Of a stretch of 64,000 nt of DNA, positions 8,090 to 57,780 are shown in pieces (positions within the stretch are counted from its first letter, which is position 1; each line of letters starts with the position of its first letter). Location: NCBI GenBank assembly GCA_003971905.1, contig RSEE01000007.1:496001-560000 (forward strand). The letters are read 5' to 3'. A program made the position numbers and the translations under genes. A model generated the notes under the pieces. That model made no database searches. It was not told the origin of the DNA and was given only the letters and a program-made list of their open reading frames with translations. This DNA is from Moniliella sp. 'wahieum' (Eukaryota).

Positions 8090-10090
8090 TATTGCCTGAG
8101 CGTGCCTGAGGCCTCACCTGAGCGCCTAAGCGCTGAGGCTCAGCCGCTCACATCTCCACGTATTTCACTGTCACATGTCACACCGCTTGCTGTTTGGGTC
8201 ATTGTGGGTGTGCTTCTCAACGTTCAACACGTTCAACTGGCGAGTAAGGTATTGACGCGCGACGACCGCGAGCCTTGTTTGCTTGGTGATATATGTGAGA
8301 TAGACCGTAGTAACCGGTAACCTAGGAGGACTGTTGTCCCTTGGCTTCAACGCTGCAACTCTGGAACATCTAGTTGAGGCTGCTGAGGCGTTTGAGGCGC
8401 TGAGGCGAAAACATCTATTGCCACATGTTAACAGTACCTGAATGGCCTGGGTGGTGACCGGTGACCGGTGACCAGGGACATGTGAAATGCAGGTGGCAAC
8501 TTGGCGTGCGGCTACCGGTGAAACCACCGGTCATCGATTCATCGATCGTCGATCACCGATCGTCATGCGTCATGCGTCATGCATCAACGGCAATTCCAAG
8601 CACCGAATGTTGCATAGTCACCGGTCATTGATCTGATCGATGATCATATTGGATTTGGTCAACTACATAAGGCCCAAGGCCCTAAGCCTAAGGGCGTAAG
8701 GGGCCTCAGGCCTCAAGGCCTCAAGCCACCAACCCAGCTAGCTGCTACTGCTGCTACTGCAGGTTTTTCCGAAGATACTAATGGTCAGCTAGACACGAGC
8801 CACTGCTACTAGTCACTCAGTACTCACTATAGTCACTAGTCACTGTCATATGTCGCATGTCACTAGTCACTAGTCACTAGCCACTAGGTACTTTTAGTCA
8901 CTGACAAGTCGCTATATATAAAGACAGACCCCTATGCTATTACAGGTTGAACGTGTTAGGGCGATGCCCCAATCACGCCATCCTGCGTGATAGACATCAC
9001 CCTTCTTATCCGCCCGGACGCTTCCTCAGCTCCCGGTGCCCTCGACAACACCCTTCTCATATCATAGTCTCATGTACCTCTCCCTCAGAACCACATCTCC
9101 TCCATTCTCCTTCTCGTTCAACTTGAACAGAGCGTTGAACTTGAACATTGAACGTGAATGTTGAACGTGGAGCGGTCGAGGCCTATTAAAGCCTAACCGG
9201 TAACCTTAGGCTATGCAACTGGGCAGGGACATCAACTTGAGACGATTGGAAGCGGGTGAAGTGGTCGGAAGGGAGGAGGATGCCTCAGGCCTCATATCTG
9301 ATCTCAGAGATCTCAGCGTTCAACGCGTTCAACAGATGTCAGAATCTATATTGTAACCGTATCATTGACAGAGCTTAAGGCTGGGACAAAGAAACGCTGC
9401 GCCTGAACCGACCGTTCATCGGAACCTATATTGCGAAATGCTCGGATGCATGATCGATGGTCAATGATATAATATATATAATGATAGATGGTCGAGGCAC
9501 CAACGCCTCAATGGTCTCAGGCCCAAATGAGAGTGGCGCAGTGGGGCGCTGTTCGTGCGGCGGACGCAGCGCAGGGCTCCACTGTACGTAATTGAGAAAC
9601 GCCACAGCGCCTGTCGGCTAAATGGGCACGGCAGCCCACGGCACCATCCGTCTAAGATCTAATAAGCTCACGAGCTTAACGTTTAACACGTTTAACAACG
9701 ATGTGGCGGCCGATTGCGGCCTATTGCGGCCCGAACAACAGAGTAGCCAGTGCTCACCCAGTCGAGTCGCTAGCGCCTGGTCACTAGGTCACTAGCACTA
9801 GTCACTGGCTAGTCCCTGGGAGCTAGGAACCAGTACCGAGTAAGCTGGTTCAACTAGTAGCTAGTCACTTGCCACTGGTCACTGGCTCTCTGCTACTGGC
9901 TCGTCGCTATCATACCACCCGTCACCGTCACCAGCCAAACACGCCAGTCAATATCAATATCAACGCCAATATCAAGCCAGAGCCAGCCCTGGCTGACCGG
10001 TGGTCATCGATCACACATCTGCCCCTTGTACGTACCCAAGCCAACCTCAGGCTTCAGGCCGGCCTCATCCATTGTCATCGATCATCCCTT
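8090..10090. repeat. Intergenic cluster of 7-bp-period TSA+palindrome arrays
   Basis: tcacatgtca 8171; (tgaccgg)x2-tgacc 8455-8473; tcaggcctca 8706 and 9285; (tcactag)x3-ccactag 8860-8887; taaccggtaa twice; gttcaac/gttgaac runs. Lies between two apparently divergent genes. Confidence 0.8.
9352..9420 (+). repeat. About 70-bp dispersed repeat, probably a decayed LTR end, copy 1
   Basis: Shares ttgacaga..gagcttaaggctgggacaaagaaacgct..gcct.aac..ccgttcatc with 33072-33142; both copies begin with TG. Confidence 0.65.
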
Positions 10091-10611
10091 CCACGTGTGA
10101 CGGCGATATGTGCTTGTGCGACACTGATATCGGTTGTTCTTCCCCACCAGTCCAGCATCCCTCTTCCTTCCTCGTCCCCCTCGCCCTTCCCCGCTACCGC
10201 CCGGGCCTTCCATCTCATCGCGCAGCCTGAGCGCACCGCCTACCTTTCTTCATGTCGCCGTCCTCCACCAGTGTTGCCGCTCCGCCCCCTCCCCGCCCCG
10301 CACTCGGCCCATCCGCGCCTTCCAGCACACCGCTCCTCCATTACCATTGGCCTGCTCTCCTCTCACACCCGCCCCCGCCACCTCGCCCCAACAGACACAT
10401 GCGCTCCTCAGGCAGTCGTCGGACCATGGCCCGCTTCTGCCCGCCTCTCACCCCGCCCGGGCCCACGGCCAGCAACGGCAAGGAAGAGAAGAGGACAGTT
10501 TTGCCACCCATCTCCGATCCTGCCGCCCTTCCCATTCCCACACACACTGATCCGCCCGCTCTGCTGGGGGGTTTTGCAAGTCTGTGCCTCGCTCCGGACC
10601 GCGACATTGCG

Positions 10612-12406
10612 ATGCTCGACGTGAACATCATGGACGACGCCTTACCGGATAACCCACCAGTCTGCCCCCTCCCCCAGCTTGCCTTTCACGTGCCCTCCGC
10701 CACCGCCCAATCCCGAGGAAGAAGATGCCAGTCCTTGGGTAGCTGAACAGGGAAGTGTTGCCTCTCCTTTATCCCACCACACTCTCCGTGCACGCTGCCA
10801 CCGCCCTCGCCTCCGCCCTCACCTCCCATGTCGACACGTTGTCAAGCCTCGGTCTCCCCCTCGATCCAGATGGATGGTGCATCAGTTCCTGGTGCTGGAG
10901 TCGGGCTTGGCTGCCTGGATGGTGGCCCATCCGTCGGAAAACCAGGCCTGGACCCTTTGTTTCCCGCTCTGCGACCCAGACGTGGCCGCTGCCCCGGTGG
11001 TCCTTGTCCACGCTCCATGGCCACGGACATTGCACCCTTTCTGTCAGCCTCACATGGCCACCTTGCGGTGGCTGGGGGCGCAGCAACCTGATCAATCTGT
11101 GTGTTTGACCAATACCGCCGCCTCTCCGCGCCGCGTGTCCCTGCCCCCAGCTGGAGGAGCGGGTGGACTGTCAGGGACCAAGCGCGCATTGCGTCTTTTG
11201 ACATCCGTCAGCAACACCCTCTCTTCCTGCGCACTTACCCCTACCGCCAGTCTCCCCATCAGCCTCAGTCCCCGCTCCAGCCGCAGCTCCAGCTTCAGCG
11301 TCGGCACTCATAATGCTCGCAACCCTCGTACCTCATCCACTTCTACCTTTGACAGCTCATCCGTCGCGTGGCTCTTCCCATTTGCATCTTCTTCCACACC
11401 ACGGCTGCACCCTCCACTACCCCTCACGAACAGAAACCGCGCCGAGACAAACTCAAGTCACGCTTTGGCCTGCGCAGACCCACGCTGAATCAGGCATGGC
11501 TTCCGAACTCTGCCATGCTTCGTACAGAGAGGCTGCGGAGAGCGGGTCGATCGACGCTGCGTCACCAATGACCCCGACCAGTCCGCCCATGGTACACGCC
11601 TTTTCTGCCCCCTGGACCCAACCCACGCGCCTTACATGCCCGGGGTCCCTCGAAGATGGACTGAAGAGTGTGAATGCGGTGGACTCCTCCTTCACGACTG
11701 CATGCCCGATCCGGCTGCCTCTCTCAATCCAGGCCGAAGGTGAAAGGGAAGGCAAGACAGGACAGTACAGTTGCGACAGTTCTTCCTCCCTGGGGGTAGA
11801 TAAGGACAACAAGGCCAATCCATCAGGGAAACCAGCATCTTCTGCTCCAGCTGCAACACTAGCGACGCTCCCCCCCCCCTTTTCTTGCACTCGTCAGAAA
11901 GCAGCGGGTCCCTGAACCATGACGTGGAGACGGAGGCAGAGACCGAACCAAGAACTGCTGAGCCGCTCCTGAGCTATAAAACCTCTCCCTCTGACCTGAC
12001 ACTACTCTCCCCCTGTGTCAGCACCAGCGAGGACCAAGGCGCAAACGCAGACCTAAGCGCAAGTGTACCCATACTCCCAACGCCAAACTCGAACTTGGAC
12101 GATGCCCCGTTCCGCATGATCCTCCCCTCGCTGCTGGGGGACGGTAGGTCGGTGCACATCTGCTTTAGTCTATTTGGGTCGTTGGAGGAGGACAGCGACA
12201 AAGTCGCGTTCCGCATTACTGCGCGCGAGAAGAAGAAATGGCCTTTCCGTGGTGCTGGGGGTGGGCGAGCGCGGGAAGCGGATCGTACTAGAGTTGTACC
12301 CGATGGCTGGAGCGCATGGGGGGCAGTCTGCCCCCAACTCCCGGTGCCAGTGCCCTCTGGGCCACCACTATTGTGTCGGCTGCGATGGTGTTGCCTTGGT
12401 GCTTAA
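10612..12406 (+). CDS. Hypothetical protein, frameshifted in this assembly
   Basis: Consecutive plus-strand ORFs (MLDVNIMDDALPDNPP...; 11885-12406 ...DDAPFRMILPSLLGDGRSVHICFSLFGSLEEDSDKVAFRITAREKKKWPF); no family recognised. Confidence 0.4.
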
Positions 12407-16200: not shown

Positions 16201-16223
16201 ATGCGGACGATGGCAGTGGGCAT
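13204..16223 (-). CDS. Leucine-rich-repeat plus Dbl-homology (RhoGEF) protein with a PH-like region
   Basis: LRRs VLEELTLSGNPL and LVQLTSLSLARNELTHLPSWLHRLRHLSELSLEGNPF; DH start RRKVLEELVGSEETYVQGLQALVDVYVAP...VFGNVEALLFFH; DH end VAKEMNEAKRQAE; PH-like start LVQPRRRLLKEGTLVLKRIV. Start and end approximate. Confidence 0.85.
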
Positions 16224-16499
16224 GGCGGGGACCGGCTTTTGGAAGGGCAAGTAGAAAGGCAAGGTGGACAACAGCAACAAGAGAAAGCTCAGCGGCTGGA
16301 GATGGCGATGGGGATGTTGGTGCGCGAGGGTGAGCAAGAAGGGGAGAGGGCCGAGAGAAAAGCGCGCGAAGAGATGCTGGTGCACCACTGATGCTGCCCC
16401 CGTCTCGCACCGCCCCTGCTGATGCCATCGGATGCAGTCATAGCCAGCCGCCTGGCCCCTGCGCCTCTTCTAGAGCCTTTTCGACGTTCGACAGGCTCC

Positions 16500-17320
16500 G
16501 ACTCAGCGAGCGACTCAGCGAAACGGACTCAGGCGTATAATGCTCAGCCTCAGCTGAGGCGTGTTTTATTAGCGCTGAGTGCGCTGAGTACTTAGAGCGT
16601 TGCACTTTAAAGTATGGCGTCTACGAGAAAATGAATGCAGAACCTCTCCGTATAACCCCGCGGTCTGAGATCCAAGTTACTCTTCTTGATCTGAGTACTC
16701 AACCACTCAACGTTAAACGTTAACTCAACCTCAGTCGACCCACACATAATAGCCACTATCTCATTCGCCACATCATGCATCATGCATCACACGTCGTCCC
16801 TTCCCGCCCCTCCCAGACTGCCCCCCGTCCCGGCACAGGGACTGTCGATAGCCCCCCTCGTCTCTCTGCCGCTCCGCCCGCAGTTGCTTGCAGTCGCCCC
16901 ACATCCACAAGTCTGCTGTGACCAACCAACCACGTCTGAGTGTACTCAAACTGAGTGTTGTTACGTGAATCTTATATTCCCCCGCAGGAGTTCGCCCACC
17001 ACGAAACACCCTGTTGTGGCACTACCATTAGCTACTGCAGATGACTATATCCATGTCAGCCGCAGGTGAGGCCGGTGACCGGTGATCGGTGACATGCTGA
17101 CAGATGACCACATCAGTGACTGTGGCTAGTGGCTAGTGACTAGTGGCATAGTGCTGCGTAATGATGACGTCGATGACGCGTGACGCGCGCATGACGCGTG
17201 ACGACCGTGAACGCGTGATGAATGGATGATGCAAGATATGATGTCCATTTCTGGATGATCGTTGATCGATGATCTCGATGATCGGTGATAGTCGGATGAC
17301 GTCGATGGTATGACAAGTAT
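16500..17320. repeat. Intergenic cluster of 7-bp-period TSA+palindrome arrays
   Basis: tgagtactca 16692; (tcatgca)x2-tca 16773-16789; tgaccggtgatcggtgacatg near 17076; tggctagtggctagtgactagtgg near 17123; tgacgcgtga and tgatcgatga runs 17160-17300. Confidence 0.8.
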
Positions 17321-19219
17321 TTGTATAGTAAGGGCAGGCGAGGCGGGCCGTGAGACGATGACAATCCATAAGAGGAAGGCTGCCTGTCTCCTCTTCATCC
17401 TCTTCCTTCTCCCGGCACACTCGCCAGAGCAGGTGCGAGAGCTTGACGGTTCCTCCCTCACTTGCTGACCATCGCTCGGGAGCGTAGCCACTGGCTGTGA
17501 TTTTACTGAATATTTGCTGTCTCGCTCCGTTGCACCTACAAGCCATATTAGGCGCTTCAACGGCAGTTACCTCCATGCCAGAAGTTATCCCTGTCGTATG
17601 TCCTAACAATTAGTGGCCATTATACCCCCTGTTACATTGGAGCAACATGGGCAAAAATCCGCTGAACCTATAAAGAGGCTGGTCCATTGTCCGGCGTGTG
17701 CTCTGCTTTTGCTCGTTCCACAACCAGCTCAACAGGTAGCCCTGGTATCTCCTGCGCCTGTAGAGAACGACATGAGGTACCCGGACGGACAAGGAGGCCG
17801 GACCGCTCTACGTCACCAATGCGTGGCTCGGTCTCTTCCTCCTTTAATGGCTGCCCAAACACGAGGACCGAGAGGCGGAGCGACGACGCAACGGTTGTGG
17901 GGAGATAAGGCTGTGGTACATGCATCCGCTGTCCCTTCTTCTCATTCCTCCGTTCTTGTATCCAGCCCGTTGGGGGATTCACGTCCAATTTCTATTATCT
18001 GGCAAGATGAAGAAAGGGGGGGGTGGGGCAGAGGGGCCGCGTGCTGGACTTGGACGCTGAGCCTGCCAGCCGGACCGCCTCTCGACATGTGGGTGGGAAG
18101 CAACCGAGCCTGTTGCTGCATGCCACAACAGCACTGGCTTGGCTTGAGTATTGCCCATATATAGGTACTGAATCGTTTGAATGCTTTTCATTCCAGCATG
18201 TCGCGGGCCTTGAGGGCCCGCATCGTCGGAGGGTTCGACTTGATCACAACCGAGAGGTTGCTGGGGTAACAATAGTAGTCGGTTATAATAGGTGTTGGAT
18301 ATGGGTGCGGACTACAGGGATAGGGGCTAAGATTGGAGATGCTAAAGGTGGTGACATTGTCACTGGCACTACAGAGGGGGTGGGGGGGTGGAGGCATAGG
18401 AAGATGCAGAGCCCACTTGTTGACTGTATGAGCAAGTGGGGAATAATCTGGGGGGATGATGGCATTCTGCACTTACGACAGCATCTGACGCACCTGCACT
18501 TGAGGATCAGGAAAAATCATTGGCAATGATACACCAGATTGGTAAGAAGAAAACAGGGGTGCTAGGCGTAGGCTCTGCAGCCGTCCGCCCCAGGACTGGG
18601 AAGATCTGGACGGAATTCTAGATGCTGTGGGGTGTCGAACCTGTCTTCTGCACACTATTTGACGTCTTTGAGAAAAGACGGGCGACAACCGTGCAGACTT
18701 ATGCGGCGGAGAATCGGGTTTTCGCAAGTTGCTTTGCGGGGCTCTTTGGACAAAAGGACACTTCTCAATTATACAGAGGTGGATTTTCATGAGGATGGTA
18801 CAAAAGTGACGACGCGGGGAGGTGGGCTTGGATGAGGCGACAGCAGTGCTGCTGCGGCATGTGAGGCGTGGGACAATGTGATTGCACCATGGACGGCGCC
18901 CGAAGTGCAGGGTCCATCGTGGCCAAAAACCAGGGTTGGGGCAGAAGAGGGAAGATGGAGAGGTGGAAGCTGTCCATAGCTTTTAATCCACACAATGAGA
19001 ATACTCCGTGCCCACTGGCTGCTTGGGGCAGAGTGATGAAGTTCATCAGGATTATGGACCTCATGATCGACAGTCGTCCCTCCTCCACCCACAACCACAG
19101 GAATCTGGGAGAGCACCCTGTGGAAGTGAGACAGAAGGTTGTTTTCTCGTTCGTGAGACGAGCCCACTATAATATCGGTGTGCTACTATACCAACTAACT
19201 TCCGTTGTATTTCAGCTCG

Positions 19220-19850
19220 ACGTCAGGCGTCAGAGCGCGCCAAGCTCGTCAAGCCTGTGATCAGCGCTGACCCTCAGGAGCTCAAGGCATGGTGTTTGTG
19301 GCTTTTGCTGTGGGGTTTCCTCTACTAGGCTTTTACCTCACAAACACGTACTTATGCATTTGGGTGGCCATATCACCTGGGACGTGTGAAATGCGGCATG
19401 TGGCCCCCCTCCCAGTTGCTCGTCCACACTGGCCATTGTTCATTTTCTTCCCAGGGATGTTGACACCACGTCACCTTCCAATCCAGCCATGCCGAACGCT
19501 GGGGCGGGGAGCGCCACGGTGCTGCAAGCCGCAATTGGCGAGGGATCGGGCTCGGGTCCCAGCCTGGGGCAGGAGGGAGAAGCGCATGGAACGCACATGA
19601 GGTGCACACGAGATACACATGCGCCGCCAGCAGCCTGTTCGCACGCCCACCTCCGTCGCCACGTGGCAACGTACCACGTGGAAGCCAGCGATTCGGTCTT
19701 GCAACTTGCAGCCTCTTCTACCGGCTACCACACGCCAGGGGAGGCAGGCGACAATCACCGGTTATCCGGCACTAGTGGCCCACCGGTGACCGAGGACTGA
19801 AGACTGCCCGTGTGCGTGCCAAGTCAACATCATCGATCATCAATCATTGC
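19220..19850. repeat. TSA+palindrome units upstream of ERV29
   Basis: tcagcgctga 19261; tcaccggtta and ccaccggtga near 19755-19790; tcatcgatca 19830. Confidence 0.6.
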
Positions 19851-20004
19851 ATCCTAGATCCTGCCCAAGCTAGGAGGCGTGATCACACGTCCCGCGATCA
19901 CGGGCGTGCCAGCCGCAACTGGACATCGCAAACCTTGTGGGCATCGCCAATTCATCCGTCTCTCTACCACCCCTTCCACCACCACCTCCCCCCCTCCCCC
20001 ACCC

Positions 20005-24029: not shown

Positions 24030-24490
24030 CGACTAGTCAGTGGTGGTTGACGCTGACGCTGACGCTGACGCTGACCGCTGAACTTGAGCGCCCAGGAGCG
24101 CGGCGGCGCACAGCAAGGCACTCCCACGCGCACTATGTAGAGGACGACGTCTGCCGCAGAGGCACCACACCGTTTACCCCACACGCCCAGCACGACCCAA
24201 GCCAAACAGGCGGCTGAACTTGCTTCCGTAATGCACCCGGGGTCGGTGTACCCCGGCCATCGCGGCACACAGGCACCCGAGCGCCCCGTTTCCCGCTTCG
24301 CCCTGCCGCGGCTGCCACGAGCATCTACGTCATCGATCCGCACCATCTCTCGCCGCAGCTGGCACCCCTCCACGCCAGCCATGGCCACCCCCCCATCGCC
24401 AGCAGCAGTCACTAGTCACGCGTCACGCCCTAGTCGATCTCCATTGCCTTCTTCATCAGCATCTGAGATCTGAGTCTCAGACCGGTCTCT
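24030..24490. repeat. TSA+palindrome units and a (tgacgc)n run upstream of the 6PF2K gene
   Basis: (tgacgc)x4 near 24048-24071; tca-ctag-tca-cgcg-tca 24409-24425; tgagatctgagtctcagacc 24464-24483. Confidence 0.7.
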
Positions 24491-24738
24491 GACCCCCTCG
24501 CGCCGACGCAGCCCTTTTTGTCCCACATCTCGCGCCCCGGTCGCCCCTTTTAATAATAGCTCCGCGCTTTCGCCGACTGGATTGGATTGTGGATTGAAAT
24601 CCGAACGTTTCTCTGGGCTTTCAGTTGAACCAGTCGCAGATTGCACGCGTCCTGAGAGGCCTGCAGCCTGATCGAGATCGACTTGGATCATCTCTTCCTC
24701 AGACGGCAGGGCGATGCCGGTGATGTGGCACAGGGGCT

Positions 24739-25386: not shown

Positions 25387-25485
25387 GGGCTCATGGTGTA
25401 GTGGTATCATGCCTCTTTCGGGTCAATCCCGAGCTGGATACAGTTCGAATAGAGGTGGTCGTGGGTTCAATTCCCGCTGAGCCCC
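25387..25485 (+). tRNA. tRNA-Pro(CGG) with a 27-nt intron (about 25423-25449)
   Basis: Acceptor stem GGGCTCA/TGAGCCC; A box TGGTGTAGTGG; anticodon stem CCTCT/AGAGG with loop TT-CGG-G; intron contains CCCGA, complementary to the anticodon loop; T arm GTGGG-TTCAATT-CCCGC. Confidence 0.93.
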
Positions 25486-30004: not shown

Positions 30005-30552
30005 GGTGGCGAGTGCGATGGCGGAGGCGGAGGGGGGGGCGGGGGCGAAGGGGGCGAGGTTGCGCGTGGGCCGGGGGGGCGGCGGGGCAGGGTCGATGGC
30101 GGGCGGGAGGGTGCCCTGCGGGGGGAAGAAAAGAGGTGGCCATGGCAGAAAACGGCGGCGCGAGTGCGCGCCCCCCAGTGTGTGGGGGCGGTGGGCTGGC
30201 GTGGGAGCAGCGGGCAGAAACAGAAAGCAGCACGAAACGCCGCCGACGACCGACACGGGCGAGTGGGCAGGCGGGCGGGCTGGCCCCCGGCCCAGCGGGC
30301 TGAGCGGTGACTAGTGACTGGTGACCGGTGACTATGCCAGGGGAAAGTGCCCCGTGCCAAGCGCTGGACGGATGCTAGTCTAGTCAGCAGCCGCCTGCCC
30401 CCAACCCCCGTCTCGGTCCAGCGTCTGCGTCAGATCTCAGATGCGTCTCGTCTCGGTCTGCGTCCCGTCCACACACCACATCCAGCGCCTCCCACGGCCA
30501 GCACAGGCATTGGCATGCCCCAGAAGCTTCAGGCCCGGCGTGACGCTGACGC

Positions 30553-30640
30553 TCCAAGCTCCAAGCTCCAAGCTCCAAACGCGAAGCTCCAAGCTCCAAA
30601 CGCGAAGCTCCAAGCTCCAAACGCGAAGCTCCAAGCTCCC
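30553..30640 (+). repeat. (CCAAGCT)n heptamer repeat with a 21-bp higher-order unit
   Basis: ccaagctccaagctccaagctccaaacgcgaagctccaagctccaaacgcgaagctccaagctccaaacgcgaagctccaagct. Confidence 0.85.
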
Positions 30641-33071: not shown

Positions 33072-33142
33072 TGCATCCATGTCGTTGACAGAGAGCTTAA
33101 GGCTGGGACAAAGAAACGCTAAGCCTAAACGACCCGTTCATC
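33072..33142 (+). repeat. About 70-bp dispersed repeat, probably a decayed LTR end, copy 2
   Basis: Aligns with 9352-9420, including an exact gagcttaaggctgggacaaagaaacgct core. Confidence 0.65.
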
Positions 33143-37100: not shown

Positions 37101-37300
37101 AGGAGCGGCTGGGCAGGGGGACGGATGGCGGGTGGCGAGATGGCTGTCGGGGCGGGCGTCATAGCGGGCGCACAAGCGAGGGAAACGGGGGCAGGGGAAG
37201 AGGAGGGGGAAGAGGAGGAGGTTACGTCGTGTTCGAGGCGCTTGCGCTTGACGTTGACATGAAGGGGCGAGCAATCGGACGCAGGGGGTGGCTGGCGCGG
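34126..37300 (-). CDS. MET30: F-box/WD40 sulfur-controller protein (Met30/SconB/SCON-2 family); start uncertain
   Basis: [16 protein letters not shown]-box [79 protein letters not shown]40 repeats [33 protein letters not shown] intron near 36738-36808. Confidence 0.9.
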
Positions 37301-37599
37301 TAGGGTGAACGGAGGAGGGGCAGCAGGGGAGCAAGCGTCGACGCTGTCAATGGGAGGGTGGCTGGAGAGTGGTCCATGCTGGCTGCTGGCGATGACACCC
37401 AACTCCCAATTTGGGGCTGGGATTAAGTGGGGCGGGGGATGGGAAGGCAGTGGCCAGCGAATGTGTGTTCGCTTGGAGGGGCGAAAGGAAGAGCAGGAAG
37501 AGGAAGAAAAGAGGAAGAGGACGGGTGGGTGAAGCGGGTGAGGGCGAAAAGACGCGATGGGCGGATGGCATGACGCCTGGGACGCCGTAGTACACGGCG

Positions 37600-37730
37600 T
37601 GCTCGTACTCATCGATCATCGAGCCTCATTCAACTCAGTGTGAGTACTGAGTAAGTGCTGAGGCTCCGAGTACAAGTCGGATAAACGCTATCATGATGCA
37701 AAAACTAATGATCGATGATCGATGATCGCA
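37600..37730. repeat. TSA+palindrome array upstream of MET30
   Basis: tcatcgatcatcga near 37609; tgagtactga 37641; (tgatcga)x2-tgatcg 37709-37728. Confidence 0.75.
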
Positions 37731-38206: not shown

Positions 38207-38443
38207 TGGTGAGACCTGGAGTCCAGATGGTCCTCGAGGGTGATGCAATCTCACTGGTGGTGGTGGTGGTCTAAGCGCCTAAGCCAAGCAGCAACGCCTA
38301 CAGAGGAACATCAAGCAGCGAATCGCCACCAGGGGCTAAGCTGCGGAACAAGGAAAAACAGGTGAGAAAACAACGGAACTCCCAGGCCTGAGGAGGAACT
38401 GAAGGGACATTGGCCAAAGCACGAGCCACCTGATGGCTCAACA
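38207..38443. mobile_element. Solo LTR, family B, copy 1, with 5-bp TSD AAAAG
   Basis: TG..CA termini (tggtgag...ctcaaca); AAAAG at 38202-38206 and 38444-38448; homologous over its full length to 56895-57125. Confidence 0.88.
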
Positions 38444-43355: not shown

Positions 43356-43402
43356 GGCAGGGAGGAGGAGGGGGACATTGCCCCATCTGTGGGGGACGAG
43401 TG

Positions 43403-43690: not shown

Positions 43691-44139
43691 GGAGGCTGGA
43701 CTAGGCACAGGGACAGTGAGTCACACAGGAGAGAGTGCAGGGCACAGGGACAGTGACACGCAGGGACGTCAGCGTGGAAGCCGATGGAACCGAGGCGAAC
43801 CTGGTCTACCGACTGGGAGCCAGAGGATCACAGTCGGGAGATGGATGAGAGAAGCGGAAGCGAGGGGGGGTGGTGCGGGTGGATACAAAAGGGGGATGTC
43901 AACGCGGGTTGAAACAGGGGTGGCGACGTGTGGGTGGCGGCGATATATGTAGAGACGCCCTGCGCGCTGCACCGCACCCGGCACCAGCGAACACAGACCC
44001 AGCCGAGCGAGCTGGTGGATGATGCGCGATGCGTGATGTTTCGGTTACATACAGACAACAGGCTCGCCGACAGCCCAGGGAAGGCGGAGCAATCTGCAAG
44101 CTCGGCGCCGCGCCGCTCTGCCCGCCGACCGCTGAGTTC

Positions 44140-45200
44140 TGGTTGAGCGTTGATGTGCGTGACGCGTTGACGCTTCCTGCTTTGAGCGCTTAGCAAGCGC
44201 TTAGCGCTGGAGCGGCCCCCTGCGGCCCCACTGCGGCTCTCGCCGGGTGCAGCGCTGGGGCAGCAGCGCTGCAGGGCTGCAGCTCGACCCTTGCCGATCC
44301 GTAGCGATCAGCTGCATGCACCAGCGGAAGCGACGCGGGCACACTGCCCCCCGGCTCCGTCGCAGGTGCTCCGGGCTCGTCACTGGCTCGCCCGGACTCG
44401 CCCCCCCGCGTGTGTCCGCCACCCCGCACGAGGCGCGCCAGCTGCGGCCTGCAGGCAGTAGTCAGCCGGTCAGACGGAGGCCTATAGTATATAGGGGCAC
44501 ACCGCCAGTGCTGGAGAATGCCGCCACCGGCGGTTAAGCGGCTAAACGCCCAGGCTGAGCGCTCTGGGCTTCCGAGCGCTCAGCCCCTCCGTGCCAGCAG
44601 TGCCCCAGTGCCCGCGCCATGACATTTAATTATGGCATTGCGACTGCGAAAGTACACCTCCTACACCGCCACCCTACAGGCTACCGACCATTCCCGCCTA
44701 CCTGTCCCCTCCGGCCGCTGGGGAGGCTCTGCTTTGATTTATTACCTTGCCAGGGCCCACCGACAAACTTTTGCGCACCGCCAAATCCCATCTGTCCCCC
44801 TCTTCCGGTTGCAAGCTTCTTCTCATCGATCTTCGATAATCTGATCTTTTCAAGCTTCAGCTTCATCCATGACATCGAGGAGCAGAGGAAACGAACGCAT
44901 CACCGGCCCGAGGCCCCCGGTTCTCGCTCAGCGCTCAGCCGATGAGCCTCATCGCTCAGGCACTCAGGCCTCAGGCTGAATTCGCTCATCTGCTCATCGA
45001 TCCCGATCTCACATATTTCTTCGTTCTCATCGATCACCTCTTCGCGTTTGCAGCAGCAGCAGTTGTGCCCACTATCATATGCAGCCGCATGTGTGAGACC
45101 GAGGACAAGTAATGAATGATTAATGATTTGGCCTCCGTGGAGGCAGACCTTCGAATAGGCCGGTGGATGACATGTTGAACGTGTTGAACGTTGTGACACA
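44140..45200. repeat. TSA+palindrome arrays upstream of the GMC gene
   Basis: tgagcgcttagcaagcgcttagcgctgg near 44183; tcagcgctca 44928; tcaggcctca near 44964; tcatcgatca near 45027; tgattaatga near 45117; ttgaacgtgttgaacgtt near 45175. Confidence 0.75.
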
Positions 45201-46039
45201 TTGACTTCGGTGGATATGTTGCCGCCCCAAACAGATTCTACAGTCCCTCAAGCCATGGGGTGTGCAAAACGCATCTGGTGGAAACAAGACGCGACGCAGC
45301 GTGGGAGGAAGGCCGGCACATGAATTGCCGGTGAACTATAGTGACAGGGCCACAGGAACTTGCCGAGGATTGGGAAGAGGGGGGGACCACACCTTAGGGA
45401 TTCGGGCCGAGGCAATAATTGCCACGGAAAGGGGGTACTTTTGAGGAAACCGCAAAACTCCGGGGAACACCGGCGGGAGAAGGAGTTGCTCGGACTGTTT
45501 TGGAGCAAGCGGAATGTGACAAGAACGCTAAGTACTTCAGGAGCTGCTCTTCCCTTGATTATGACGACGGCGGGTATTATCGTGCCACCAAAAGACGGCC
45601 AGTAAGATGTTTGGGCATTGGCAAAATGCCTCTCTGCGGAGTCTCATTGGATATTATTCATCGCTTCTCCTCGTCTACCACACGTTCGTATCCTCTCGCG
45701 CTACATTCGGTTTGGATGCGAATGGTGGGAACCAGAGGGTTCCGATCTGCCGCGGTGACTCCGCTGGCTTCTTCATTGAGTTGGCACGAATTAGCAGCAG
45801 GCGCCGAATGAGCGAGCCTGGCATGCGAAGTGCTTCTCTACAGAAAAAAGTGGGAGCAGTGTTGATTCTGTAGACATCAGATACTATCGATATGCCATCT
45901 AATAAACTGATCCACTGCCTTCTTAAAATGCAACAGCATGCTGGCAGAAATAAAGGCATACTATCCTCATAGAGAACCGAATTCTCGCATAGTAGGCATA
46001 GTAGGCAAGCCCCCCATGTCAGACACAGTGGCTTGGCAT

Positions 46040-48228: not shown

Positions 48229-48405
48229 GGGTGGGAGTGGCAGGCAGGTGGCAAGGAGGTTGGCGGAAACAGCCCAGGAGAGGGATGGAGGGGAATTCGA
48301 CAAAAGCCCCCGCCTCCTTCCTGCTTCTATAAAACCTGAACAACCGAGGGGCGGAATCAGTGGGGTGGGCTGTGACCTGAAGGTCCTTCCAATATGGCCG
48401 AATGT

Positions 48406-48446
48406 TCAGATCTCAAATCCCAGGTCTCAGATCTGAGTCTCAGACC
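48406..48446. repeat. GATC-core TSA+palindrome array upstream of FUR1
   Basis: tcagatctca 48406; tcagatctgagtctcagacc 48427-48446. Confidence 0.7.
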
Positions 48447-49331
48447 TCTCGGCGCAAGTGCTGTGCCCTGTCGGCAGAGGCCACCGCTGGAGCATCCTCG
48501 TCTGCACCCGCGTCCAATCCAAGTATGGGGGGCGCATCATGAAGCAATCCCACACCGGCCCTTACACTGACACGTACCATTCAAGGCATGCACCTTCAAG
48601 ATATTTATCCAGTGTGGTGGAAGAGGAGTGCGGGGAGGGTCTTGCGGGCTGTGGCAGCACGACTAGGTCTTCGCATATAGGCACGGTACGCGGTACAGTT
48701 GAACTGATCGGCAATGGCGAAGGAATTGCCCCCTCTTTTTTACAGTGCTCTTAGCGGCGCTATCGTCAAACCCTGCGGATCAGAGCGAGCGTAGTGGATG
48801 TTTATATATTATGTCTTCTCTGCCGAGTTCAACGTTCATAGTAGAACTAATAGCGAGAAACTTAAACCTACTGCGCTCTCGCCACCTTGGTCTGTCGGAA
48901 GTTCGCGCACATCCATCCAATCAAGATGCCATCAAAAGGGCCTATAACGAGCGGATCAGAAAGGTCAAGTCCTCCATTCCATTCGAAGAACCGAATGAAG
49001 CGTGGGTGGATGGGGGTATGAGCGTGTGGCGAACATGTGTGCAATGACTATCATTTTCAATGAATAACCGGAACTATGTTACGTCAACGAAAGACGCAAA
49101 TTCCACTCCACAGCATGTACACCCATATTAATGAAGGGGTGATATACGAGGGTAGATGTAGCTATATTGCAAATGCGAAGCTTGAAGAGCGATCCACATG
49201 AGAACAAAGTGAACGATGCAGAACAGATATATCATCATCGAATGTGTATGTGGTATGGGGGGGAGTCCCGAAGGCATCCTTCGACTCTACCCGACAGTAA
49301 AGTACCAACAGCATCTGATGGTAAGGCGGCG

Positions 49332-51491: not shown

Positions 51492-52499
51492 GTTACGGTA
51501 GTGTTCGGATATGTAACGAGACACTTTCTTCGCCTCGGGAGAAGGACAACTGGCTTGGGGGTAGGCATACGCCTGTGAGCAAAATGACACACATTCATAA
51601 AAGAGATGGATCACAGTTAGCAAGAACACAGCGCTTCCTGTTCGTCGTACTAGAGATAGTATGCTCTTGACGCTTGCGACTTACCAATCCTCGTTATGCC
51701 GTTGCGGCGGTGTTTCGGGGTGGAAAGCAGGTGGGTTTCCGTTCCAGGGGAGAGGAAAGTGGACGCGAGGCATGATGAATACTGGGATCAAAGGTGGAGG
51801 TGCGGGAGGGGGGGTGGGAGGCAATTGTTATGAGAGAGATATGCCGGGCGGGGGGTTGATATATGCAGCCCACCGTCATCTGCACGTTGGGAAGGACATG
51901 CCAGAGTCTCCTCGACCATTATTACCCCTTTAGAGTTTGAGATATGGTAGCCGGAGAGCGTCCATAGAAAGATATGGTTAGGGAAGAGAAACGATCATAC
52001 TGTGGGGCTAGGAACACGTGTAGTATTAGTGGTGATTATATACAGTTCTACTTGAAGCTTGATGTAAGATAGAGTTACTAATGGAGATGAGATGCCTTCG
52101 ATGACGTATATGTGCAACAGACATTATGTGCTTTAAGTGGTGTGTGTATGTGGCGCAGCTGATGGTGTGGCTTATGACATATCACGCTTGGATAGTGGCT
52201 GTTATGGACACCAGCGTCAACAGCTGCGAGCGTCGCCCCCCATACGAAAGGGAGAGACGATTGAGTGCTTCTGCCCCTAAAGACGAGCCAAGCTGTGACG
52301 GTGGTCACAGGCGTTAACTGGTATAATGGCGAGAGGCATTATGACCTGGATTTCTGAGAGAGGTTGTGCTGGTTTTGAGCGCCAAAACACATCAAATCTC
52401 GTGAATTATACAAGGATGGAATTCTGTTGCTTTTTGGCTCTCATAATAACCTCTCTTTGTTCTTTTTTACGGGATGTGGGCACTGATGTCGTGTGGCCT

Positions 52500-52635
52500 G
52501 TGTTGAACGTTGAACACGTTGAGGCGCGCGTAAAGGCGAGGCGGTGAATGATTAATGATCCTCTCGGACGTCGGCCATTTCCGGAACGCGGCTTATGCGC
52601 AGCGGAAGGGAGGCCGGGGCTGAGTACTGAGTTCA
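52500..52635. repeat. TSA+palindrome array between the metacaspase gene and the retroelement
   Basis: tgaacgttgaacacgttga near 52504; tgattaatga near 52549; tgagtactga 52621. Confidence 0.7.
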
Positions 52636-52913
52636 GAGAGTAGGGACCACAGCCTACGCTATACTGGCCTTATTCTTCCAAATCTCTCGTGTGTCACATT
52701 GCCCACTATATGTTGTCTTCGTAGTCTTCCACGCGGTGAAAATCAAACACAGATATAGCGTGGCACCAGCCTGCACCACAGCCCCCTGCTTTCCCGCAAT
52801 TAAGCATGCGCCACACGGAGAGCCACGCCAAATAATATGGCACCCACATGCCGCCAGCGTCGTTACAAGTATTATACTATATTACTGCACATTATTTATG
52901 CATTCATGGCCGG

Positions 52914-53093
52914 TGTCACAGTCGGGGCTAAGGCGAGGGAGACCAGGATCGGACTAGGCCAAGGGGTGTAGCAATCGTTCGTGGGGAAGAAGCAAGAAAG
53001 AGGACATGGTGCGAAGTGGAAGGAACAGGGAAGGAGCGAGACGCTCGAGACGAAGAAATTGGAAATGGGAGCGAGATCAGCCAAACTATGACA
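52914..53093 (-). repeat. 3' LTR of the gag-IN element
   Basis: tgtcacagtcgggg...ccaaactatgaca; direct repeat of 56365-56540. Confidence 0.95.
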
Positions 53094-53096
53094 TTG

Positions 53097-53105
53097 CCCC
53101 CTTTC
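53097..53105 (-). other. Polypurine tract
   Basis: GAAAGGGGG on the minus strand 3 nt before the 3' LTR, overlapping the integrase stop codon. Confidence 0.8.
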
Positions 53106-54683
53106 AGACCTCATCTCCCGGGCGGCGACGGAGGCGAGAGAGGGCGAGTCGGCGGGCATGGGAGACAGGCTTATCGGGGTAGAGGGCGTGGAAACGGACC
53201 ACTGGCTCGGCGTCATGAGACATGTCCGCAGCGGGTACCCACTCCCGCTCGTGGACAGGATAGCCCCGGAAGTGAACAAAGTACTCAATGCGGCCACCAC
53301 GACCCTTGCGGCGAGAGTCGAGGACATGTTCAACCTCGTGATGAACCGCACCATCATCAGCATACTCGGGGAGAGGAGGCGGGGGCTCAATCAAGCGGGC
53401 AGGGACCACGTCACCAGGGGTGTAGGCTCGCAAGCGGGACACATGGAACACGTCATGGAGGTGTAGGTAGTCGGGGAGGCGGACCTGGTATGCGGCGCGG
53501 CCCACGGCGCGGACAATGGGAAAGGGCCGAGGTAGCGATAGTCGAGGCCGTCAGAAGGCCGCTGGCTGGCCATAGCCGTCCCGACGGACCAAGACAGGCT
53601 GGCCAGCAGTGAAGGAAGCCGCCTCGGTGCGCTGCTGATCGGCATAATGCTTGTAGCGGTCTTGGGCCGCGGCGAGCGTGCGGCGGGCCACCGCCTGGGC
53701 CGAGCGCAAGTCCTCCAAATATGACGCAGCATCGGGCACGGGCGAAGTGGAGGGCTCCAACTCCCCCCGGGGAGAGTAACCATAGGTGAGGACAAAGGGG
53801 GACTGGTGGGTGCTCGAGTGGGAGGACGAGTTGTAGGCGAATTCGGCCGTGGGGAGGAGGTCGAACCAGTTGGACTGCTGCTCGTCGAGGTAGCAGCGGA
53901 GGTACTGTTCGAGGATCTGGTTGAGTCGCTCAGTCTGGCCGTCCGTCTGGGGGTGGACGCGGTGCTGAGGCTCGACTTGATGCCCAAGTCGGCACACAAG
54001 GCTTGCCAGAAGTGGCTTGTGAAGGTCGGTCCCCGATCACTCACCAGATCCCGGGGAAGGCCATGGTAGCGAAAGACATGGTGTACAAACTGGCGTGCGA
54101 GCTGGGGCGCAGTGTCCGTCGTGTGGGCGGGAATGAAGTGACCCATTTTGGTACAACGATCCACCACCACCAGAATCGCGTCGTAACCATTGGATCGGGG
54201 AAGCTGGGTAATGTGGTCCATCGTCAAGTGGGTCCACGGGCCTTGGGGAGGGGAAAGGGGCTGAAGGGGTCCGGCGGGTTGGTGGCAAGGCGCTTTGGTC
54301 CGTTGGCAGCGGTCGCACGAGCGCACGTAGGCCCACACGTCGGCTGACAGGCGGGGCCACCAATATTGAGCGCGGACACGGGCCAACGTCTTGTCGCGCC
54401 CTTCATGACCCGCCAATGCCGAGTCGTGGGCTTGGTGGAGAATGGCAGCGCGGATCGGCCGGTCGCCGGGGACGTAGACCTGGTTTCCGTGCCACAAAAG
54501 ACCGTCGCGGACCGTCAAAGCATGGGGAGGTGGGCTTGGAGCCGTAGCAAGGGACCAACGAGGGTCACGAGGCACGAGTTGGCGGATGCGCTGTCGAATC
54601 TCGTCGGCAGACGCTCGCTCCACCACCGGTGTATCGGGGTCCGCCGCCATGAGCTTGAGGGCGGCGGCAGAACGTTCGGACAT
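53104..54683 (-). CDS. Retrotransposon integrase with HHCC zinc finger, DDE core, GPF motif and chromodomain
   Basis: AHDSALAGHEGRDKT..YWWP..VRSCDRCQRTK; LTMDHIT; VSDRGPTF; HPQTDGQTERLNQ; YRYLGPF; chromodomain HEVEHVLDSRRKGRGGRIEYFVHFRGYPVHEREWVP; three frame segments joined by indels. Confidence 0.93.
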
Positions 54684-54777
54684 GGGCTCCGCCAGTACTT
54701 GAGGTGCCGCGCCAGCGGGCCGGGAGGGAACCGAGGAGGGAAAAGGAATCGAGTTGACAGAGGGGGGCGAGATGGGG

Positions 54778-56323
54778 TTAGATGAGAGGTGGACTTGGGC
54801 CGGGGCCCGGGCGAGTGCTGGTGCTGGTGCGTAGTCTTGGTCTTGGGCTGGTCTGGGTGCTGGGGCTGGTCTTGGGGCTGGGGCTGGTCTTGGTGCTTGG
54901 GCTGGTCTTGGGGCTGGGGCTGGTCTTGGGGCTGGGGCTGGGCTTGGGGCTTGGGCTGGGCTTGGGGCTTGGGGGGTTGGGGCTGTGGCCGGGGTACAGT
55001 CGTGGAAGGCATATGGTGATCACGGCACTGCGCCTTGAGCGCGGCGCTCGGTGCGCCGGGCCGCCGCTTCAGCGGTGGCGGTGACTGCGCTGAGGTCCAT
55101 GGGCTCCGCTTCGGGGCGACGAGGGCCGAAACCAATGATTGCCGCCCGATCCCGGGGAGATGGCGGTACCATGAGCGCCCAGCGATTGCGATTGGTCGAT
55201 GTCAATGGCCGCTGTGCGCAGTTGTTCGAAACTGATCCGTCCCAAGTGAGCCGACTCGCCGCGGGAGGCGATTGCGTCACGCACCCGCGGCTTCAAGCCG
55301 TACAGAAAGCAATAGTAGCGGTCCTCATCCGACGCGTTGGGGTTCCAGCGACGCAGCAGAACCGTGAACGTAGCGGAATAGTCCGCTGCAGATCCCGTCT
55401 GCCGAAGACGACGAAACTCCTCAAACGCCTTCAGCGCCGGGTTGCGCTCGCCCCACTGCTCCAGGAAAGCTGCGCGAAACGCAGGCCAAGACTGGAGGGC
55501 GGGTGTGGTGCGCGCCTCCAGGGGAAGGGCCACCTCCGAGCCGAACTGCTCGACCCAAGTGAGGGCCTCTCCCTGCAGCAGGCCCATGAGCGGTCGATCC
55601 ATGCCGCCGCGCCATATGCGTGAGGGCGACGCGCGCGTAAATCTCGAAGGAGGTGACGACGTGCTGGGCCTGGACCCGGTCACGAGAGTTGGGATTCGCA
55701 CCAGACGACGGGCGGAAACGAACGGGCTCGAACATCTTAGGCTCTTCCGACACCGTGTTCGGGATGGCAGTCAGATCACCATAAGGCCCAGGGCGGGAGC
55801 GGGGGCGGGGCCGAGGACACCACGCCAGTTTGAGCCTCCCGTACCGAGGCGGCCAACCGGGCCTCTTCCGCGGCAAGCGCCGCCTCCTCCCGCCGCTGAC
55901 GGAGGCGGTGCTCACGGCGCTTCGCCTCTTGCTCATCCTCGAAAGCGCGGCGCTTCGCCTCTTGCTCATCCTCGAAAGCGCGGCGCTGGTCCTCCTGGGC
56001 TGCAAGGTAGGCCTGATTTTCCCGGGCCTCCGTCAACAGAAGCTGGCGCATTCTGCGGGCCTCATCGACCCGACGCTGAGCGGCCTCGAGGCCCAGCCCG
56101 GACAGGTCGGAGGCAGGCAATGTATACCCCGGGGGCGCGGGCGCAACAGACGGAGCTGCATGGGGGGGCCAGAGGGGCCAGCCGGGTGGAACCACTCCGG
56201 GCCATCGTCGTCGAACGGAGCGTCAGAGGGGGGTCGGACGGGGTCGGATTGGGCCGCGCCGCGCGATGGGTTGCGGCGCGCTAGGGTTACTGGGGTCAGG
56301 GGGTTGTCGTGGATCGAGGACAT
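54778..56323 (-). CDS. Retrotransposon Gag with coiled-coil N-terminus and repetitive C-terminal tail
   Basis: LLQGEALTWVEQF..SWPAFRAAFLEQW..EEFRRLRQTGSAADYSATF..FLYGLKPRVRDAI; EPMDLSA motif; tandem duplication encoding RRAFEDEQEAK twice; split by indels. Confidence 0.85.
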
Positions 56324-56353
56324 CTCTGGTCGGGCTCGCCTGTTGACGGTTAG

Positions 56354-56362
56354 ACGAACGAT
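56354..56362 (-). other. Primer-binding site complementary to the element's own LTR (self-priming type)
   Basis: Sense ATCGTTCGT, 2 nt after the 5' LTR, is the exact reverse complement of sense ACGAACGAT inside the LTR (56424-56432). Confidence 0.75.
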
Positions 56363-56364
56363 AA

Positions 56365-56540
56365 TGTCACAGTCGGGGCTAAGGCGAGGGAGACCAGGAT
56401 CGGACTAGGCCAAGGGTGTAGCAATCGTTCGTGGGGAAGAAGCAAGAACAGAGGACATGGTGCGAAGTGGAAGGAACAGGGAAGGAGCGAGACGCTCGAG
56501 ACGAGAAATTGGAAATGGCGAGATCAGCCAAACTATGACA
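56365..56540 (-). repeat. 5' LTR of the gag-IN element
   Basis: Direct repeat of 52914-53093, flanked by TSD GCCGG. Confidence 0.95.
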
Positions 56541-56894
56541 GCCGGCACACCTGCGGCTGTGTACCTATCCCATACTGTTTCTCCAGTATATCAACTGATC
56601 GTGCTCGGCCTAGGGCGCGCTACAGTGATGCCGATGTGCACCTCCGCTGTTCAACTCTTCAACGGCTGGGCGCGCTGAGAGCTGGGAGCGCTGGGAGCGC
56701 TGGGAGTCTTTGCACATTTGTTGCAGTCCTCCTGAACGTTAGGTGTGAATAATATGGGACGCAGCCCCTGGCCGCCTTCATTGTATATGAATCGCAGCCG
56801 AAATGTGTTTGAGAGCAGACAAGAGGCACCGTGAAATGCGACATTATATGTATGACCTGGTGAGGCCGGTGATCGGAGAGAGAAGATAATATGA

Positions 56895-57125
56895 TGATGA
56901 GACCTGGAGTCCTGATGGTCCTCGAGGGTGATGCAATCGCACTGGTGGTGGTGGTCTAAGCCAACCAGCACCACCTACAGAGGAACAACAAGCAGTGAGT
57001 CGCCACCAGGGGCTAAGCTGCGAACAAGGAAAAACAGAGAGAGAAAACAATGGAACTCCCAGGCTTGAGGAGGAACTGAAGGGACATATTGGCCAAGAAA
57101 GCACGAGCCACCCGATGGCTCAACA
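56895..57125. mobile_element. Solo LTR, family B, copy 2, with 5-bp TSD TATGA
   Basis: tgatgag...ctcaaca termini; TATGA at 56890-56894 and 57126-57130; homologous to 38207-38443. Confidence 0.88.
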
Positions 57126-57750
57126 TATGACACTGCGCCCGCGTTTCACGCGCTAATATATGAGACACGCCAGAGTGTGGCGAGGGACCGGGCTGTGGGC
57201 AGCGGAGGCTCTCTCTCTTCGGGTCTATGTCGATTGCATATTTGCAAAAAACCGTGTCACTTCACAGCTTTAAGCAGGGACATTGTGGAGACGCCTCCCC
57301 CCAGGCAGGAATGATGCTGGCTTTCTATCCCAGGTGATGCGCGTGATGAGATGCAGTGATAGAGAGAATGCGGAAGTGGGGTCGTATCCGGACTGAGAAA
57401 AGAGAAATCATATACATGTGGGAAGAGAGGGAGGATCGATGATGTCAATGATGGACGAGAGAATTGAAGAGGATCTCATTAGGGGGTGACTTCTTTTTGG
57501 CCACACACACCACATCTATCTATGTATCGGAGTGCCTACCATATGGAAGACGGGGGGGGGGTCCTTTCTGCGCCTATGTGTCGTGAAGGGCCCGAGATGA
57601 GAAGAGGACCGCCTATTCAGGAGACATTTTGCCGGCAAGCCGGACGTGGCAGGTTTCGCGTACCCGATGTCGCATGCCATGTGTCATGCTGCACGCGAGC
57701 AAGGACGCGTCGATGTATTACGTAACAGGCACTGCGCTGGCCCAGGGTTG

Positions 57751-57780
57751 TCATCGACCATCGACCACCGATCATCGGCC
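57751..57780. repeat. TCGA-core heptamer array upstream of the bromodomain gene
   Basis: tca-tcga-cca-tcga-cca-ccga-tca-tcgg. Confidence 0.65.

Follow-up and report, generated by a model that had tools for sequence, protein, structure and literature searches.

The stretch analysed here is a 64-kb window of contig RSEE01000007.1 (by "the window" we mean this whole stretch), eukaryotic, with a G+C content of ~58%, split genes and one long terminal repeat (LTR) retroelement. Pfam supports genes for a RhoGEF-domain protein, SURF4, 6-phosphofructo-2-kinase, a CDC24-like protein, a WD40 protein, V-ATPase subunit D, a GMC oxidoreductase and uracil phosphoribosyltransferase. The closest named protein matches come from Tilletia spp. 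(56–59% for the oxidoreductase, 80% for the phosphoribosyltransferase) and then from other Ustilaginomycotina, and by these matches the host is a smut-related basidiomycete. Our subject is a short element scattered through the non-coding DNA between these genes, in which the triplet TSA (S being C or G) recurs after 7 bp around a 4-bp palindromic core. Gene models were Pfam-anchored open reading frames (ORFs), self-trained segmentation by codon usage being too noisy (G+C at third codon positions only 0.66), and assignment of 5′ and 3′ sides is rough for genes with no Pfam match; the ORF set held the 243 ORFs of at least 110 codons in the window, and the null model was 200 dinucleotide-preserving shuffles.

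The pattern T[CG]A-N4-T[CG]A occurs 123 times in the window, against 59.7 ± 7.4 in the shuffles. Palindromic cores make up 63 of the 123 (3.4 ± 1.6 in shuffles, with a maximum of 9), while the 60 non-palindromic cores show no excess over the ~56 expected; we thus confirm as real, and far beyond chance, a TSA-palindrome-TSA pattern that a preliminary description of this DNA had picked out by eye. All 13 cores cited there, of the 16 possible, are present (listed in Table 1), and the three that had not been clearly seen, AATT, ATAT and TATA, each have a count of 0. When spacings from 3 to 15 bp are compared, palindromic pairs with the same middle base are in excess at 7 bp only (59 vs. ~1.5), and when all 64 triplets are compared TCA (34 vs. 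0.75) and TGA (25 vs. 0.85) dominate, with TAA, TTA and CCA/TGG as minor variants. Exact period-7 arrays of at least two copies are about tenfold enriched (43 vs. 4.2 in shuffles); odd palindromes, in one rotation or another, account for 23 of the 43, compared with 9 of 84 in shuffles, and a T-S-A centre is found in 22 of those 23.

The element is nonetheless a direct 7-bp repeat rather than a palindrome, because its two TSA share their middle base: this base is identical in 59 of the 63 palindromic-core pairs (1.6 expected), whereas the fully symmetric form TCA-core-TGA, in which it differs, occurs four times (1.7 expected) and is not enriched. We therefore define a same-S chain as TSA-palindrome-TSA with an identical middle base S, of which the window holds 50. 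The period extends exactly 2 nt outside the TSA pair, matching in 61–70% of cases at positions ±1 and ±2 and falling to background from ±3. Two TSA only are present in 42 of the 50 chains, and one flank dinucleotide is fully in register in 36 of these 42; both flanks are in register in 7, and the match classes (0,0) and (1,1) have 0 members each. With a perfect 10-mer next to it, a flank that mismatches at ~35% per site cannot have arisen by decay, so we read the mismatching flank as the original, non-complementary arm. The simplest description of the unit is a duplicated NN-TSA-NN with arbitrary arms, the core consisting of two bases of one copy and their reverse complement. In two hybrid chains (24409 and 33026) the arms of the middle heptamer do not complement each other, and the core on either side is the palindrome of whichever arm adjoins it. 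TSAxy..TSAxy pairs at a distance (d) of 7 bp carry exactly y′x′ at the joint in 69 of 90 cases. The roughly even use of 13 of the 16 cores fits a palindrome that is copied, not recognised. Periodic runs mostly span 10 to 14 bases, with a sharp fall at 15, and most elements hold fewer than two full copies; three or more TSA occur in 8 of the 50 chains, some arrays reach 3 to 8 copies with point-change variation, and no palindrome longer than a 14-mer was found around an element. The earlier statement that symmetry and period, not sequence, are the conserved property is correct but incomplete, in that it is NN-TSA-NN that is duplicated, with a joint that copies the neighbouring dinucleotide in reverse complement.

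The same rule governs other spacings. Exact NN-TSA-NN 7-mers repeat at offsets 7, 8, 9 and 11 (n = 20, 6, 7 and 1), where at most 0.15 are expected at any one offset and ~0.05 at each of 8, 9 and 11. The bases between the copies reverse-complement the adjoining repeat end or ends in 4 of 6 cases at offset 8, in 6 of 7 at offset 9 and in the single case at offset 11; for offset 9 a value of ~3/16 would be expected by chance, and 7-mers with other centres follow the rule in 13 of 86 cases. Extended to all same-S TSA pairs, the junction rule finds 21 vs. 4.9 expected at d = 9 and 2 vs. 0.1 at d = 11, with no excess among different-S pairs. Two elements are diagnostic (Table 1): the GATGACG unit at 17163-17178 has non-complementary arms, and the GTAC spacer at 33038-33055 joins 2 nt that reverse-complement the end of the left copy to 2 nt that reverse-complement the start of the right copy. 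Counted without regard to the joint, same-S TSA pairs number 55 vs. 29 expected at d = 6, 98 vs. 30 at d = 7, 46 vs. 30 at d = 8 and 59 vs. 31 at d = 9. The d = 7 form predominates far more than in the published excision experiments, as these are given in the accessible text of PMC5873905.

The same-S chains are unevenly placed with respect to genes. None of the 50 lies in the 10.4 kb of Pfam-supported ORFs, where ~10 were expected from the TSA sites present, and none in the 3.6-kb LTR element (~3.3 expected), which bears out the preliminary description where it called the pattern rare in coding sequences and in the young retroelement; its further remark on rarity in convergent 3′ spacers is compatible with the data, the 0 chains in two such spacers (1.7 kb) not differing significantly from the ~2 expected. 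The 28.6 kb without long ORFs hold 39 of the 50, and the remaining 11 sit within other long ORFs, for the most part at the 5′ end. Several elements stand 30–200 bp from a first ATG (10075, 19830, 30308 and 37609), and elements extend to 2.5 kb from the next gene start and to ~230 bp past a preceding stop (7545). A strict promoter location is not established, because elements reach that distance of 2.5 kb and because five of them lie at 31.2–33.7 kb, which may be 3′ of the WD40 gene. The largest element-rich stretch, 7318-10100, has 15 same-S chains, of which 13 are TCA on the + strand, and within 30300-31200 the middle base changes from G (30308 and 30322) to C (30430, 30715 and 30900).

Two side observations concern the elements themselves. 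Their middle base comes in strand blocks, with 13 C and 2 G in 7545-10084, 4 G in 17076-17272, 2 G and then 3 C in 30308-30916, and 4 G in 52053-52630. At 30551-30639 an array of the CCA + AGCT heptamer is interrupted every 21 bp by a unit containing ACGCGAAGCT, giving a 21-bp super-period with 95% match, a higher-order expansion of a variant that lacks the T of TSA.

Table 1. Features of the window, with the further heptamer duplications in metagenome loci L053 and L045 (coordinates within the named locus)
Feature	Coordinates	Strand or setting	Contents
Largest element-rich stretch	7318-10100	Between the 3′ end of a + ORF pair (6436-7317) and a + gene start (~10.1-11.9 kb)	
GGTGACC, three exact copies	8453-8473		NN-TSA-NN unit with complementary arms
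Element-rich stretch	16438-17400	5′ side of the RhoGEF-domain gene (-)	5 chains
Diagnostic element, GATGACG twice	17163-17178		Copies 9 bp apart; spacer TC, reverse complement of the right copy's first two bases
Stretch	19183-19870	Upstream of the SURF4-family gene (+)	Elements at 19261 and 19830
Stretch	24037-24650	5′ of the 6-phosphofructo-2-kinase gene (-)	(TGACGC)4.7 at 24048-24081; chains at 24409 and 24464
Hybrid chain TCA-CTAG-TCA-CGCG-TCA	24407-24428		Middle heptamer AGTCACG, arms non-complementary
Stretch	30300-31200	5′ of the CDC24-like gene (-)	6 chains; (TGCATCA)4 at 30711-30738
Low-GC stretch	31201-33700	May be 3′ of the WD40 gene	5 chains; no ORF of at least 110 codons in 32117-33824
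Diagnostic element, GTTGAAC twice	33038-33055		Copies 11 bp apart; spacer GTAC
Three chains	37609-37728	Directly upstream of the first ATG of ORF 36716-37612 (-)	(ATGATCG)3 at 37708-37728
Stretch	44030-45250	5′ of the GMC oxidoreductase gene (-)	5 chains
Stretch	48310-48900	5′ of the uracil phosphoribosyltransferase gene (-)	Elements at 48406, 48427 and 48829
Stretch	51900-52910	Between a probable - gene and the LTR element	4 chains, all TGA on the + strand
CCA-variant array	57752-57777		CATCGAC (CCA + TCGA), ~3.7 copies
Palindromic cores, part 1	CATG 8171, CCGG 8455, GGCC 8706, CTAG 8860, GTAC 16692, TGCA 16773		
Palindromic cores, part 2	GCGC 19261, TCGA 19830, CGCG 30900, TTAA 31903, AGCT 32580, ACGT 33033, GATC 48406		
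LTR retroelement	52914-56549	-	gag, integrase zinc-binding and core domains, chromodomain (Pfam); 5-bp target duplication GCCGG
Further TSA-centred heptamer duplications	L053 595-610, 1956-1967, 5371-5387, 8701-8730; L045 4906-4917, 5008-5017	Eukaryote-like contigs	

For comparison we took 45 metagenome loci (460 kb), each picked for holding one (TCATGCA)3-type array. Most of them hold no other cores, and hits to other cores are not enriched (27 vs. 18.6 expected), so the pattern is a property of this genome and not of DNA generally. An array of (TCATGCA)3 alone is not diagnostic, because a metagenome scan found at least 118 stretches carrying it. One locus that had looked like an element-rich relative (L064) was set aside as bacterial, with pilin and O-antigen ligase genes. 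Three others (L053, L045 and L048) hold two or three further elements each, those of the first two being built on the heptamers GGTCACC, GATCATC, GTTGAAC and GCTCAGC, and these give a weak hint that the process is shared by other fungi or eukaryotic contigs; a search of the metagenome loci for terminal inverted repeats plus a duplication returned trivial self-matches inside arrays only. Full-text literature searches found no description of the heptamer grammar, nor anything to confirm the heptameric arrays in Ustilago maydis intergenic DNA that the preliminary description had mentioned, and the accessible part of PMC3152781 holds nothing relevant on Ustilago maydis, palindromes or 7-bp repeats.

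We favour, with a probability of roughly 0.5, the reading that the elements are promoter-targeted insertion and excision scars, each a 7-bp target-site duplication with hairpin-derived P-nucleotides. We infer the transposon as the agent, since none lies in the window, and likewise the hairpin chemistry and the chromatin preference, from the anatomy and statistics observed above. A cut-and-paste transposon would insert by 7-bp staggered cuts centred on TSA (the middle base of the target being mostly C or G, sometimes A or T), duplicating NN-T-S-A-NN, and its excision would leave hairpin-capped flanks. The host would open each hairpin ~2 nt from the tip and join the ends, and at the joint a reverse-complement copy of the adjoining bases would replace two bases or add two. 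Where both duplex ends stop at TSA and one 4-nt overhang (xy + y′x′) bridges them, the product would be TSA, a 4-bp palindrome and TSA, at period 7; keeping the other arm would give period 9, keeping both overhangs 11, and a shorter or longer hairpin opening 6 and 8. Periods 6, 8, 9 and 11 are all observed in the window. One cycle would turn one copy into a perfect odd palindrome, from which a second cycle or slippage could make clean arrays, and repeat hits on a duplicated target followed by slippage would make longer ones. A preference for accessible DNA near gene starts, with selection against 7-bp frameshifts, would confine the scars to non-coding DNA, where by a rough inference of rates a single active element transposing at an ordinary pace could leave tens of thousands of neutral scars. 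The hairpin implied is a capped double-strand end that leaves P-nucleotides, not a fold-back of an array strand. Among the interpretations offered in the preliminary description, a hairpin-related mutational process on accessible non-coding DNA comes closest to this one, differing in the type of hairpin, here the capped end of a double-strand break. The proposal that each strand of the arrays can itself hairpin is weak, for 42 of the 50 chains contain no more than two TSA and only three of the eight longest arrays fold better than shuffles (z of −2.1, −3.0 and −3.6), the other five having z between −0.1 and −1.2.

Two marks of hairpin-type excision are seen in these data, namely a duplication of fixed length on both sides of the joint (offsets 7, 8, 9 and 11, with the same middle base in 59 of 63) and P-nucleotides complementary to the adjoining flank (69 of 90 at d = 7, 6 of 7 at offset 9 and the one case at offset 11, vs. 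13 of 86 for other centres). Together they make up the textbook footprint of transposons whose excision leaves the flanks capped by hairpins. Excision of Ac/Ds in haploid Candida albicans, in the part of that study open to us, likewise left inserted P-nucleotides that formed palindromes about the bases flanking the transposon. Two products predominated, and 128 excisions gave 28 footprint types in all (PMC5873905). Like these hAT footprints, which arise through repair by end joining, the elements keep both duplication copies, carry short palindromic P-nucleotides at the joint and show few predominant products. The accessible text of PMC5499845 describes hairpins on the flanks for MULE, hAT, Transib and RAG1 alike, and the opening of a flank hairpin a couple of bases off its tip to yield a 4-bp palindrome is a further likeness to V(D)J coding joints, Transib and MULE; the same source puts excision of Muta1 in yeast at >90% precise. 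The hAT superfamily specifically is rejected as the source here, where a 7-bp unit with T as its third base and A as its fifth stands against an 8-bp duplication. The consensus of hAT target duplications is nTnnnnAn, and the duplication of Transib/RAG is 5 bp. Odd-length duplications with symmetric target preference are found in Galileo (P superfamily), at 7 bp, and in Tn10, at 9 bp, both with an odd-palindromic target consensus, and Tn10 shares the T-N-A centre literally. Their target arms are sequence-specific, however, whereas here only T-S-A is fixed and arm symmetry arises afterwards, and to our knowledge neither is noted for hairpin-type flank scars. In a different setting, the short direct repeats of ribosomal DNA (rDNA) intergenic spacers have been attributed to past transposons (Bendich and Rogers 2023, PMC10319768), the closest published idea that our searches turned up, which resembles ours in that non-coding spacers fill with short direct repeats by insertion and imprecise excision; in the parts of that account accessible to us there is no defined target, period or palindromic joint, whereas here the cut geometry can be inferred.

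A number of observations weigh against excision scars. In the 64-kb window we found no cognate element with terminal inverted repeats and a matching, TNA-centred 7-bp duplication (one hit in a first search, not TSA-centred, and none in a second, with 0–2 false hits in shuffles), and among the 243 ORFs no transposase besides the integrase of the LTR element. We know of no hairpin-forming superfamily characterised by a 7-bp nnTSAnn duplication. The joints, with 69 of 90 alike, are far more uniform than those of hAT footprints, and the density is very high: complementary arms are found in 23% of TSA heptamers in the element-rich stretches vs. 5.7% elsewhere, and scars at ~1 per 250 bp over 12.5 kb of non-coding DNA, both figures being for stretches chosen post hoc. 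The middle base is blocked by strand, 13 C to 2 G in 7.3–10.1 kb where other TCA and TGA stand at 63:47, and it follows the local C-G skew (P = 0.001) beyond composition alone. Arrays of three or more copies require a second process. Finally, the target duplications on record are 8 bp for hAT and 8–10 bp for MULE (PMC5499845, in the text accessible), as opposed to 7 bp, centred on T-S-A, here. The strand-blocked middle base is predicted by none of the explanations that we considered.

The best-surviving rival, which we nevertheless rate unlikely, is hairpin-aided replication slippage or template switching with no transposon, by which odd-palindromic TSA heptamers would misalign or fold while accessible DNA is replicated or repaired, then duplicate and expand as microsatellites do. 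It agrees with the general excess in the window of short tandem repeats with periods 6 to 9, with the existence of 3–4-copy arrays, including CCA variants (30551-30639 and 33630-33655) that have lost the T-A pair and expanded all the same, with the better folding of three GC-rich arrays (z −2.1 to −3.6), and with the frequency of (TCATGCA)3 alone in unrelated DNA, one of the metagenome stretches being bacterial. Yet 42 of the 50 chains have two TSA only and mostly 12–13 periodic bases, too few for slippage, which in its simple form cannot write non-complementary arms with a reverse-complement dinucleotide at the joint and leaves both the TSA centre and the constant 7 bp unexplained; there is no preference for arms of 4 or more, and five of the eight long arrays fold no better than shuffles. 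Like heptanucleotide microsatellites the elements have head-to-tail 7-bp copies, but their unit is centred on TSA, 23 of the 43 arrays are odd palindromes and most elements have less than two full copies; as a class, they are not slippage microsatellites of at least two to three full copies, three or more TSA being restricted to 8 of 50 chains and runs of 10–14 bases dominating. Slippage is likely to have acted as a secondary process behind the long arrays.

Selection is the next candidate, and we think it rather improbable that the elements are selected cis-regulatory or chromatin elements, whether they were to act as initiator-like sense-strand TCA, as binding sites of many dimeric factors or by excluding nucleosomes. 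Their nearness to gene starts, several being 30–200 bp from the first ATG, would suit such a role, as would the strand blocks of the middle base and its tendency to read TCA in the direction of the nearest downstream gene (~27 vs. 7, by a rough assignment on uncertain gene models), and some of the 6-bp palindromes created, e.g. ACGCGT and ATCGAT, resemble known factor sites. No single factor fits, however, because usage is spread almost evenly over 13 unrelated cores; full symmetry brings no enrichment, neither the one-sided flank rule nor the reverse-complement spacers of the offset-9 and offset-11 cases have a functional rationale, and sites lie up to 2.5 kb from the next gene start or ~230 bp past the previous stop. 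For symmetric dimeric-factor sites in particular, and for the lattice of symmetric DNA-binding dimers once suggested for this DNA, dyad symmetry of the whole site would be needed, and both fit poorly with 4 symmetric forms (1.7 expected) beside 59 direct ones (1.6 expected).

We give still less credence to an endogenous non-mobile enzyme, a domesticated transposase or site-specific nuclease, that breaks TSA sites in open chromatin and leaves repair to write the duplication. Its sequence signature would be identical to that of excision footprints, it accords with a window in which no transposon is seen, and the uniform joints would suit a dedicated pathway. A 7-bp duplication, however, needs a copy of the heptamer kept on both broken ends, which integration achieves, whereas a plain hairpin-forming break gives P-nucleotides with no duplication (PMC5499845, within its accessible text, and general background on DDE transposition); no candidate gene is at hand.

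Other models were discarded on the anatomy of the element. A 3-bp TSA duplication with 2 + 2 nt of transposon termini, in the style of mariner or Harbinger, is ruled out by a period that runs 2 nt past TSA and by the 13 cores, and a 3-bp TNA duplication of the PIF/Harbinger or IS5-like kind, with inner bases from fixed element termini, by the same diversity of cores and because 36 of 42 chains have 2 nt outside TSA duplicated as well, on one side or both. A 5-bp TSAxy duplication with 2 P-nucleotides predicts the same sequence as the 7-bp model at d = 7, and the 7-bp duplication is favoured because the offset-9 and offset-11 cases repeat the whole 7-mer. Fold-back copying predicts a complementary middle base, which is the rare class, and membership of a dispersed repeat family is rejected on a self-BLAST with only five off-diagonal matches.

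Some further features of the window deserve mention. The retroelement (Table 1) has 181-bp LTRs with 96.7% identity, and it looks internally deleted, because neither reverse transcriptase nor protease was found with Pfam in its interior of ~3.3 kb; within it lie an 18/54-bp G-rich repeat (54815-54985, the 18-mer in ~8 copies) and a perfect 33-bp tandem duplication (55915-55980). A 243-bp dispersed repeat with 87% identity (38207-38443 and 56895-57125), one copy of which is just past the right LTR of the retroelement, may be either a solo LTR or some other element. Two copies of a non-coding element of 59–61 nt (9362-9420 and 33082-33142) are 85% identical and share an unbroken core of 29 nt, and both stand directly downstream of GTTSAAC-type arrays; the element has no Rfam match and could be a small conserved cis-element or RNA. 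A tRNA at 25387-25485 (+), found with Rfam (49.3 bits) and not with ARAGORN in its bacterial setting, probably has an intron, because the match spans 99 nt.

If the elements are scars, for which we put the odds at about even, what is new is a 7-bp T-S-A-centred target for hairpin-type excision scars, which are dense enough to reshape the non-coding DNA around gene starts. Raw sequence would then reveal the cut geometry (a 7-bp stagger), the target (T-S-A) and the mode of repair (a hairpin opened ~2 nt off its tip) of a transposition system never seen directly, one that can reshape a large share of promoter DNA, and whose scars motif finders would take for regulatory grammar. More tentatively, and with the odds against it, a hairpin-forming transposase, mobile or domesticated, might target T-S-A in open promoter DNA with a 7-bp stagger and, in this fungal lineage, leave scars at a per-site rate comparable to that of point mutation, such that at least a fifth of promoter TSA sites are scarred and promoter turnover, new 6-bp palindromic sites and promoter microsatellites all stem mainly from this process. 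On that reading the strand-blocked choice of C or G hints at a coupling to the direction of transcription. Should the scar reading be wrong and the elements be selected, they would amount to a symmetry-based promoter code, which would be still more surprising. If it is right, the process would offer a testable source of rapid cis-regulatory change, promoter microsatellites and palindromic factor sites in plant-associated fungi.

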